A DNA stretch of 64,000 nucleotides from Verrucomicrobiota bacterium (GTDB lineage Bacteria > Chlamydiota > Chlamydiia > Chlamydiales > JAEYWL01), in contig JAEYWL010000046.1 in assembly GCA_023428915.1 (NCBI GenBank), forward strand, positions 3 through 64,002. The letters run 5' to 3'. Position 1 is the stretch's first letter; the number at the start of each line of letters is the position of its first letter. The notes below the pieces were generated by a model, which saw nothing but the letters and a program-made list of their open reading frames with translations, made no database searches and was not told the DNA's origin. Below are positions 50,349-51,949 of this stretch, in pieces. Made by a program: the position numbers and the translations under genes.

Positions 50349-51566
50349 TTAGAGCCTCACCAGTTGCAGTTCTTGCAGAAGCTGCAGCATTACAATCCCT
50401 GCTGAAATCACTATGATAAGCAGCAGCATAGGCTTGCCGCCCGGGACAATAGGCTGGCTGGTTTCATGCAGGGTGTAGCGCGACTTCCATACCATTAGGG
50501 CCGGAAGGATGCCGAACAGGATAACCGCCCCAAAACCGCCTGCATAGTTCAAGGCAGTTAAGAAAATGCCGGGATAAGTAAAGGCGCAGATAAAGGGTGG
50601 AAGGAGCGCCATTGCGCATAAGGCAATTTTACCTGCAGGCGTTTTCTTGATGTGCAAGCCGTCCGCCAGGAAATCTACCAAACTCAAAGCCACAGCCAGG
50701 AAAGAAGTGACAATGGCAAAAAAGGCGAAATATTGTCCAATGGTCACAATCCAGGAGGCTCCAAGTGCCGATCTTAGGCTTTGCACCGCCATTTCCCCTT
50801 TATCCAGCGCGTCTAAAAAGCCATGGCTGGGAACAATACCCAAAACTAATGCTTCCCAGATCAGATAAATAAGCAAAGGTACTGCACTGCCGATAAGGAT
50901 GGTAAGCCGTAGTTTTCGTACATTGCGTTGCATGTAGCTGCAAAGGCTGGGAATGAGGTTGTGGTAGCCAAAAGAAATAATCATAGCGGGTATGGCCGCT
51001 ATTGAGTAAAGCCAGTTAGTGTGCAGCAATAATTCGGGTTTTACATAAGCAATGCCAAAGCCGACTAAAGCAAAGTAGGAAACGATCAAACCTGTCATAA
51101 GCAGGCGGTTGAGTTCGTCTACAGCTTTGGTGCCGAAAAATACAAACAAACCAAAAAGGAGGTTAAAAGCCAAACCGCCGATCCAGTTAGGAACGATCTT
51201 TCCGGTAAGGGCGGCAACGAAGTCAGTTACCAGTACGCCGCAACCGGCAGTATAGGCAACCATTAGGGAATAAAAAAGAAATAGGAAGCAAATCCAGCTG
51301 AAGGTTTGTCCGATGCGGCCAAGTGTTTTGCCGGTCATCGAGATGATGCTGACTTCTTCCTGGAAAAGCAGGTTTACTTCTAAGAGAAGCAAACCGGTTG
51401 CTGCCATAAATAACCAGCAAAGGACAAATAAAATTAAGGAAGGAATAAAGCCCGCTGCAGCGCTTAATACCGGCAAGCCGAGCATGCCTGCGCCGGTACA
51501 GCAACCAGCCACTAATAATATTCCGCCTAGAAGACTGCCTTCCTGGCGCGGGTGTTCACCGTTCAT
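50349..51566 (-). CDS. tyrP: Aromatic amino acid permease (TyrP/Mtr/TnaB family), copy 2
   Basis: Paralogue of the previous gene (GGILLVAGCCTGAGMLGLP). The ATG at 51566 with an upstream gagg RBS is preferred over the TTG at 51653. Confidence 0.85.
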   Translation of the reverse strand: MNGEHPRQEGSLLGGILLVAGCCTGAGMLGLPVLSAAAGFIPSLILFVLCWLFMAATGLLLLEVNLLFQEEVSIISMTGKTLGRIGQTFSWICFLFLFYSLMVAYTAGCGVLVTDFVAALTGKIVPNWIGGLAFNLLFGLFVFFGTKAVDELNRLLMTGLIVSYFALVGFGIAYVKPELLLHTNWLYSIAAIPAMIISFGYHNLIPSLCSYMQRNVRKLRLTILIGSAVPLLIYLIWEALVLGIVPSHGFLDALDKGEMAVQSLRSALGASWIVTIGQYFAFFAIVTSFLAVALSLVDFLADGLHIKKTPAGKIALCAMALLPPFICAFTYPGIFLTALNYAGGFGAVILFGILPALMVWKSRYTLHETSQPIVPGGKPMLLLIIVISAGIVMLQLLQELQLVRL

Positions 51567-51797
51567 AAAAGCCTCTAAAAAATCTGAGTAAATTGAAACA
51601 GGAGTATGCAGGGTGTGTGGATGATTGGCCTTAAGGCCAAAAGCAGCCGGCAAATGAACGGGGATAGAAGGATATGATATTACTTTTCATAGCCAGTTAT
51701 TCTAAAAGATCTAAAAAAAAGTTGCAATTAAAAAAAACTCAGTTGTTTAGGTATGATTGAACTGTTATAAGCAGGTCTTCGTGTAATGGTATGATAA

Positions 51798-51902
51798 GGC
51801 ACTTAAATGGACAAACGACAAAATCGACATTAATGACAAGCGACTGGCGCTGTCCATTAAGTCGTTAAGGTCCCTAATGTCGATAATGTCCATTTAAGCG
51901 CC
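51798..51902. repeat. REP-2 palindromic repeat, intact 105-bp copy
   Basis: Outer arms ggcacttaaatggac and gtccatttaagcgcc. GTC at 51852, 51861, 51870, 51879 and 51888 (9-bp period). Centre is ctggcgct. Confidence 0.8.
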
Positions 51903-51949
51903 TAATTTTAGACAATGGCTTGGATTACGATCGGCTAAAAGGTGATAGC

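Follow-up and report, generated by a model that had tools for sequence, protein, structure and literature searches.

The locus at 51798-51902 raises the question of what kind of element has a palindrome with arms made of degenerate nonamers, where GAC recurs on the left and GTC on the right. The initial annotation of the window, i.e., of the whole 64,000-nt stretch of DNA that was analysed (C68:3-64002), regarded this as one of five copies or half-copies of a repeat atypical of REP or BIME sequences, and proposed either a multimeric protein-binding array or the relic of a codon-phased tripeptide repeat. We found that the repeats are gene-less, mobile, intergenic palindromes with a real 9-bp phase. 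Our main reading, to which we give a probability of about 60%, is that they are foldback-like and MITE-like non-autonomous transposons whose nonamers are candidate repeated recognition sites of a protein.

The window is part of a draft MAG (G000 among the compared genomes) of 2.68 Mb, with 131 contigs, 42.8% G+C and 91% completeness. Genes were called with an ORF heuristic, and ORFs of at least 100 aa make up 88.6% of the genome. The nearest relatives of the product of rpoN, the gene next to the 51798 copy, are ~52% identical and belong to MAGs labelled Waddliaceae and Parachlamydiaceae; to judge by this protein, the host is therefore an environmental chlamydia. No strain variants of the protein are on record, and the family of the source organism is represented in the collection by one other species genome.

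All coordinates of the initial annotation were correct when checked against the window sequence. GAC recurs every 9 bp in the left arms of the two copies near the end of the window (63811/820/829/838 and 63928/937/946/955/964), and so does GTC in the right arm of the 51798 copy (51852/861/870/879/888). The spacing had been described as strict on both arms. This is accurate for that right arm, whereas the left arm of the same copy has GAC at 51810/817/826/835/842, i.e., at spacings of 7, 9, 9 and 7. The centre is conserved as claimed (ctggcgct at 51845, ttggcgct at 63848). Autocorrelation gave a peak at lag 9 in all five pieces of the window (0.41-0.49, compared with 0.14-0.32 at lags 3-15). 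In the whole genome, four or more GAC at exact 9-bp spacing formed 66 runs and four or more GTC formed 81 (147 in total), against 0-2 runs of either at the control spacings of 7, 8, 10 and 11 bp. No other trinucleotide had period-9 runs behaving like those of GAC/GTC anywhere in the genome. Phased GTC arrays of at least three units numbered 121 genome-wide, mostly with 4-5 units, compared with 1-4 at neighbouring spacings.

The logo of the unit is GTC[C/G][A/T]T[A/T/G][A/G]N, with up to 93% of T at position 6. The consensus proposed before, ATTAAYGAC, is roughly its reverse complement. When copies were aligned, the number of units changed by whole units (gaps of 9 or 18 bp). The core columns were the best conserved among 51 older copies, an effect that is possibly in part an alignment artefact. 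The likeness of some units to a DnaA box (TTATGGACA vs TTATNCACA) was set aside, as it fits some units of this genome only and not those of other lineages. There was no match to Rfam 15 at the gathering score anywhere in the window.

A census of the genome with nhmmer retrieved 93 loci in 49 contigs, and the share of the window was exactly the five pieces previously listed. The periodicity persisted when all copies were aligned, and the family extends beyond the window. Contig ends hold 25 of the 93 loci. Hence, the repeat breaks the assembly, and the MAG is fragmented precisely at its copies. Table 1 gives the features of the window together with the young copies that were fully assembled elsewhere.

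Table 1. Elements of the window and fully assembled young copies of the same genome. Positions without a contig name are those of the window.
Feature	Position	Strand	Details
Half of split copy	35424..35480	-	Five GAC units, then GACTAAGCGCCA
Unrelated 248-bp palindromic element, in the loop of the split copy	35481..35728	.	
Other half of split copy	35729..35790	-	ATCACTTGTCG, then five GTC units
Complete older nonamer palindrome	51794..51906	.	Outer inverted repeat ATAAGGCACTTAAATGGACA / TGTCCATTTAAGCGCCTAAT
Older copy, right arm truncated	63789..63891	.	GAC 63811-63838, centre ttggcgct
Young-subfamily copy nested in the 63789 copy	63892..64000	+	Exits the window, to C68:64030
Fully assembled young copy with both flanks	C59:20249-20423		
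Fully assembled young copy with both flanks	C91:16873-17030		
Fully assembled young copy with both flanks	C110:15310-15466		

The complete older palindrome folds at -30.6 / -29.5 kcal/mol and lies in a divergent spacer, with a Trp/Tyr permease gene (50349-51653, minus) on one side and rpoN (51920/51950-53434, plus) on the other. The truncated copy starts 24 nt past a 126-aa ORF (63385-63765), on its downstream side, and its right arm stops at GTCCTTAA (63884-63891), where it is cut by the nested insertion. The nested copy begins with its terminal inverted repeat (GAGACAGTT-CATAAGTC), the first base of which is exactly 8 nt past the GTC core at 63884, and continues with AGATTTAGCTATATCAAAT and the left arm (GAC 63928-63964); after the centre, only the first part of the right arm is within the window. 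A Glu/Leu/Phe/Val dehydrogenase gene (34343-35422) has its stop codon directly before the 35424 half-copy. The 248-bp element in the loop of this split copy has inverted repeats of 49 nt (35496-35544 and 35676-35724), which hold GCATGTAG+CCACAGGCGTAAGCCTGTGG.

Elements measure ~90-175 bp, and the complete young copies (157-175 bp) are longer than the initial annotation had them. Terminal inverted repeats of ~35 bp, GAGACAGTTGCATAAGTC...GGCGCTTAAA, bracket the nonamer rows (also GAGACAGTTGCATAAGTCTGAnTnAGGCGCTTAAA), and a young copy is ordered as follows: GAGACAGTTGCATAAGTCTGAGTGAGGCGCTTAAA, GAC row, AAGCAATTGGCGCTTA, GTC row, GTCCATTTAAGCGCC..., inverted end. Each arm consists of 4-6 nonamers GTC[C/G]nTnnn (36-50 nt), and every row is bounded by the 8-mer GGCGCTTA/TAAGCGCC. 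Sequences starting with GAGACAGTTGCATAAGTC were found at both ends of the three complete copies and at ~30 half-assembled ends, and a diverged form was found on older copies. The 80 element ends share one consensus, (GAGAYRATTnC)TAAAGTCYGAATTAGGCGCTTAAATGGACAATGGAC, the terminal sequence also being given as GAGACARTTGCATAAGTC. Old and young copies are thus one family. The GAC row precedes the GTC row in 42 of the 47 close array pairs, whereas the requirement of a hairpin alone would permit both polarities. Copies have folding energies of -25 to -79 kcal/mol, and these energies showed no clear strand asymmetry (one strand was favoured in 24 copies, the other in 13). A few palindromes have nonamer rows without GGCGCTTA and without the terminal repeat (C61:20438, C21:34249, C55:35223, C43:21658).

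Other repeats of this genome share the surroundings of these elements. A further small palindrome (GGTGGACCCCAAAGTTTGGACAGAAATGAGTCTTATGAATGTCCTC...) lies inside nonamer elements at C129:5078 and C71:20676-20818. A second periodic family, with 23 loci that are all intergenic, is made of rows of up to ~30 GATCTT/AAGATC hexamers, which form inverted pairs on either side of a conserved core of 60-100 bp (e.g., C12:7098-7304, C37:9481-9766, C80:10411-10630). Its rows abut nonamer elements at C80 and C103.

The mobility of the nonamer elements is apparent in the three fully assembled young copies. They are flanked by 4-bp target duplications (CCAT, ATAA and TTAT), and excising the element with one duplicate rebuilds an uninterrupted older nonamer row. 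Target duplications and empty sites were demonstrated for the young subfamily only. The position of insertion is precise: in 28 of the 30 ends with readable flanks, G[AT]C lies exactly 8 nt outside the first G of the terminal repeat, which is the same as an insertion exactly 5 nt from the GAC/GTC core, on both sides. No other offset was seen inside the adjacent unit, and further cores of the flanks lie about one unit out, at offsets 15-18. Such a fixed offset places the insertion point midway through the 6 nt that separate two cores. Positions 63884-63892 of the window are one of these junctions, where the young copy truncated the older one. Hence, the elements transpose and thereby create nested or tandem clusters, e.g., the one at 63789-64000.

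We found neither the enzyme nor a larger relative with the same ends. This MAG yielded no transposase carrying these terminal repeats, which is weak evidence given its draft state. The solo ends in C1 and C55 have no adjacent transposase, no copy has an enzyme gene encoded next to it, and a self-BLAST of the genome revealed no multi-copy segment of at least 1 kb. In G196, the compared genome with most matches to the terminal repeat, there was no transposase with matching ends either, and the forward/reverse pairs listed there are 90-620 bp apart. A 4.5-kb pair in this genome (G196:C27) was considered as the parent insertion sequence and rejected, since it is actually two separate MITEs flanking ordinary genes. 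The scans of plasmids, phages, GTDB and JGI data did not reveal a parent insertion sequence.

The terminal repeat itself is multi-copy elsewhere. With at most two mismatches, GAGACAGTTGCATAAGTC had 179 matches in G196 and fewer in G275, G348, G075, G307 and G147, where it belongs to MITEs of 90-620 bp with varied interiors and duplications of 4-6 bp. The variants GAGACA[AG]TTGCATAAGTC lie within small nonamer palindromes, with the core exactly 8 nt outside each end (12 of 13 ends in G196 and one locus in G075, which belong to other families), whereas this register was found in none of 10 cases for the variants ...CCGTTGCATAACTC, ...GCAGAAGTC and ...GCAAAACTC. One clade within a broader MITE superfamily is therefore specialised on the nonamer core, and in the genome of the window the same clade also carries nonamer rows inside. 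Another MITE of ~150-180 bp, with ends GAGACAGTTGCAAAACTC, breaks contigs in G307 (60 matches, e.g., G307:C87:17753-17900) and G400 (41 matches), and is also present in G381 and G319. A 148-bp repeat of G307, G400 and G381, which we considered as an insertion sequence, turned out to be another MITE family.

Exact searches for the elements of the window came back empty. The pattern GGCGCTTAGTCYNTTAAGTCY had no match in 185,579 GTDB species genomes (the records of the window itself being left out), the end motif had none in JGI metagenomes, and the 175-bp element had no BLAST match among plasmids and phages. Hence, the GGCGCTTA-type family may be specific to the source species. The phased rows have a different distribution. 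We used the pattern GTCNNT(N3) x4, i.e., GTCNNTNNN x3 followed by GTCNNT, in 401 genomes sampled from the same order. It was present in 60 of them, with at least 10 matches in 35 and at least 30 in 26, and the reversed-pattern control had about 0 matches. The array-bearing genomes fall in about 7-10 families. Copy number varies from 0 to 158-240 inside one genus and from 0 to ~180 inside one family. One genus with genomes of ~1.0-1.2 Mb, presumably Chlamydia, had no match. There were 116 in a Waddliaceae MAG and 272 in a Parachlamydiaceae MAG. Five genomes from outside the order (four named as other phyla, one unclassified) had 0 matches each.

The 38 loci that we fetched from these genomes are palindromes of the form (N6-GAC)4-6, a loop of 8-30 nt, and (GTC-N6)4-5. 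Units are lineage-specific (GTCCTTTAT/GTCCCTTTG, GTCCATAAG/GTCCATATA, GTCGTTAAG, GTCGTTTGC, GTCCATGGT), and lineages have in common only the GTC[C/G]nT core and the 9-bp phase, while the remaining positions drift. The row module is much older and wider than the terminal-repeat family of this genome, nonamer palindromes that lack its terminal repeats being present in about 35 of the 401 genomes. In G163 each arm is a perfect tandem row of its own unit (GTCCATACT in one, GTCCATGTT in the other), and GTCCAT is all that the two have in common. G406 has four coexisting subfamilies, each with many near-identical copies, and one of its copies has unequal arms, with two and five units. Elements were again intergenic in the 400 kb of G200 that we inspected. 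Palindromes without terminal repeats offered neither a definable target duplication nor a precise boundary, because the unit ends in TA/AT and orthologous spacers are too diverged. One orthologous spacer of genus g49 differs between species: it holds a 5+5 nonamer palindrome in G200 and a decayed one in G216, is empty in G048 and G151, and contains unrelated palindromes in G184, G192, G256 and G208, some with arms of 6- or 8-bp units. The units in this spacer (L081-L088) include GAGACC/GTGTCC hexamer arms in G184, CGCAGAG-type units in G192, and AACGATAG octamers with GATCTT hexamers in G256, and G208 has a long REP-like palindrome. Beside a tRNA gene in G406 (L183, G406:C1:478700-479200), a nonamer palindrome is centred in a palindrome with arms of CAGAATA heptamer rows.

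The 93 loci of the source genome are all intergenic: 84 lie cleanly between ORFs and 9 touch just an ORF end. Among the 55 occupied spacers with both neighbours known, 27 were convergent, compared with 15% of all spacers (p=2e-9), and 4 were divergent, although divergent spacers hold 31% of the intergenic bases. The 51798 copy is among these few exceptions. Elements are thus mostly found at the 3' ends of genes, and many fill a convergent spacer, 10-40 nt from both stop codons. No gene was bracketed by arrays and no protein family recurred beside them. Purifying selection against insertions in promoters would explain this 3' bias, and so would a secondary role as terminator.

The latter could be taken further, with the elements being host cis-elements in the first place (two-way terminators, 3'-end mRNA stabilisers or rows for a nucleoid protein) and their spread being secondary. 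Their enrichment between convergent genes close to both stops would suit such elements, as would their long stems and the A-runs and T-runs that flank rows in family f3. REPs, too, generally follow genes and may function at the RNA level (PMC3733652). Yet, selection removing promoter insertions would produce the same 3' bias, and the stems of this genome are not consistently followed by a T-run. The orthologous spacer of genus g49 is empty in two species and has unrelated palindromes in others. The patchy copy number within single genera and families points to selfish spread rather than to a general host role, so that we find this explanation rather unlikely. The elements could also be REPIN-like single-stranded DNA hairpins that are moved in trans by a Y1 (HUH, RAYT/IS200-type) transposase, with the nonamer row as a long slippery stem. 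The initial annotation had suggested searching for a RAYT, and the genome does encode a 154-aa Y1 transposase (C127:22814-23158, PF01797 at 96 bits), with a second copy that is broken, so that there are two Y1 loci. PF01797 is also present in 24 of 25 array-rich genomes and in 12 of 29 array-free genomes of the same families (Fisher p about 2e-5), which, like the strong hairpins, would suit this explanation; the co-occurrence may simply mirror the general repeat load. The intact gene is, however, flanked by something else. In the region C127:22300-23700, it lies between direct repeats of ~120 bp, and just upstream of it is GCATGTAG+CCACAGGCGTGAGCCTGTGG, which forms a classical REP-type hairpin with a GTAG tag. 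Hence, the repeat that belongs to the RAYT is of another family. The 248-bp element in the window has the same hairpin (GCATGTAGCCACAGGCGTAAGCCTGTGG) inside its arms and looks like the REPIN-type repeat of this RAYT. In 12 array-rich genomes, none of the 20 Y1 genes was directly flanked by nonamer arrays, and we thus rejected a RAYT partnership, keeping the co-occurrence as no more than a lead. Moreover, G151 has seven Y1 matches and no arrays, the array-rich G098 (94% complete) has no Y1 gene, and the 4-bp target duplications of the young copies are absent from Y1 transposition. We consider a Y1 mover unlikely.

The palindromes without terminal repeats might themselves be immobile, arising by local slippage and palindrome-correcting template switches, so that only the bracketed copies move. 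Unit numbers that change in steps of 9 bp, unequal arms, rows in family f46 that are perfect tandem copies of one unit, and loops and unit orders that vary between G200 copies could all be produced locally, and neither a duplication nor an enzyme was found for these palindromes. Such processes would not arrive independently, at dozens of sites, at one and the same core, polarity and order of units, and the near-identical copies of the four G406 subfamilies lie at unrelated loci with common ends such as AATGGACAATGGTTAATGGAC. A local origin is therefore quite improbable. The relic of a codon-phased tripeptide repeat, i.e., decayed coding sequence, was the other proposal of the initial annotation, and here the data left little of it. 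The period equals three codons, and some lineages have one stop-free frame, reading Gly-X-Lys or Met-Asp-Leu. In G163, a 217-aa ORF (L031:1594-2247, G163:C8) runs into a perfect GTCCATGTT row, so that the protein ends in (GQH)8. Against this, all loci of the source genome are intergenic, the longest stop-free stretch in a copy is 47 codons (median 26), the open frame depends on the lineage, with TAA/TGA inside units here and in G001, and rows always come as inverted pairs. A 587-aa collagen-like protein gene of G200 (G200:C2:284963-286723, in L070) has half a nonamer row 75 bp past its stop, which we judged a coincidence: its repeat is another one (GPT/GPS) and the row is outside the gene, so that a collagen-like origin was rejected as well. 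We see hardly any chance for the coding relic.

The reading of the elements as foldback-like, MITE-like transposons with repeated recognition sites takes up the remaining proposal of the initial annotation, the protein-binding array. This is still a candidate on sequence evidence: core and phase are kept in the array-bearing families, polarity is fixed in 42 of 47 close pairs, and the register is fixed both in this genome and in G196. The core is conserved far beyond the family of this genome, and the transposition machinery reads it at single-nucleotide register. A transposon that enters at one fixed position of the unit suggests that the nonamer is probably a protein recognition site. Selection on hairpins (single-stranded DNA or RNA) is inseparable from selection on duplex sites, since arms are largely complementary, with the exception of G163, where they share only GTCCAT. 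The nonamer could then be one site for a DNA-binding protein, likeliest the transposase or a partner, that would read the hexamer core. The 9-bp phase would be the register of neighbouring protomers. The row might serve the same machinery twice, as the end-binding region of the element and as its landing pad, and it would lengthen or shorten by slippage in 9-bp steps. As a tentative and broader proposal, which we think less probable than the reading itself, these elements may belong to undescribed chlamydial tandem-array palindromes (the 9-bp class of this genome, and others with units of 6, 7 and 8 bp that share its genomic niche), each read by its own protein. The nonamer (GTCCAT/GTCSNT) would be the cis-site of a candidate transposition or DNA-binding system working in 9-bp steps, on which a MITE clade would have evolved homing at single-nucleotide register.

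Searches of the open-access literature on chlamydial MITEs, nonamer repeats and prokaryotic foldback elements revealed no description of this nonamer hairpin family. Assemblies of environmental chlamydiae are interrupted at such repeats, which are under-described for this reason. The data suggest that a 6-bp core at strict 9-bp phase is kept across much of the order while its surroundings drift. A transposon that reads this phase offers a handle, as a probe or in a target-site assay, toward a DNA-binding or transposition protein to which no annotation points. Should they also terminate transcription between convergent genes, the elements would matter for the annotation of operon ends in these genomes.

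Among known systems, the bacterial MITEs (Correia/NEMIS, Nezha, RPE-type) are similar in their small size of about 100-175 bp, lack of an ORF and tens of copies, and in having terminal inverted repeats, target-site duplications, an intergenic location and hairpins. The elements described here differ in that the search for a parent insertion sequence with matching ends was negative, in that their interior is a pair of inverted rows of 9-bp sub-repeats and not a deleted transposase region, and in that they insert into their own kind at a fixed register. IS1397 and ISKpn1 of enterobacteria are insertion sequences that home into REPs, and are thus also mobile elements using a dispersed palindrome as a specific target. 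In our case, a MITE with the ends GAGACA[AG]TTGCATAAGTC does the homing, its register is set on both sides by a GAC/GTC core 5 nt away, and in this genome the MITE also contains the target rows. The STRR sequences of heterocystous cyanobacteria are tandem heptamers in intergenic DNA. They resemble our rows as short units of fixed period that are dispersed between genes, but they have a period of 7 and not 9, lack obligatory inverted pairs of fixed polarity, and belong to another phylum.

REPs are palindromes of 20-40 bp with stems of 5-13 bp, tagged with GTAG or CGTC, and they flank their own RAYT genes; several families may occur per genome, they can be targets of other mobile elements, and their uneven abundance argues against a general host function (PMC3733652). 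The nonamer elements share with REP/REPIN-RAYT systems the extragenic palindromes, mostly downstream of genes, the uneven abundance between relatives and the coexistence of several families in one genome. Yet, as the initial annotation had recognised, they are not typical REP or BIME sequences: they have long phased-nonamer arms in larger elements, neither tag (GTAG, CGTC) appears in the consensus of their 80 ends (TAAAGTCYGAATTAGGCGCTTAAATGGAC), and it is a different repeat that flanks the RAYT gene. The closest design is that of the eukaryotic foldback-type transposons (Drosophila FB, Galileo), which have long inverted arms of short tandem sub-repeats in variable number (PMC3573991). Both have arms of sub-repeats, little or no central region and mostly non-autonomous copies, but the foldback transposons are eukaryotic, kilobase-sized and linked to transposases of the P or Mutator superfamily, so that we liken them in architecture only, with no homology implied. 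With the elements of this genome, the foldback design and self-targeted "safe-site" insertion would gain an example among prokaryotes.
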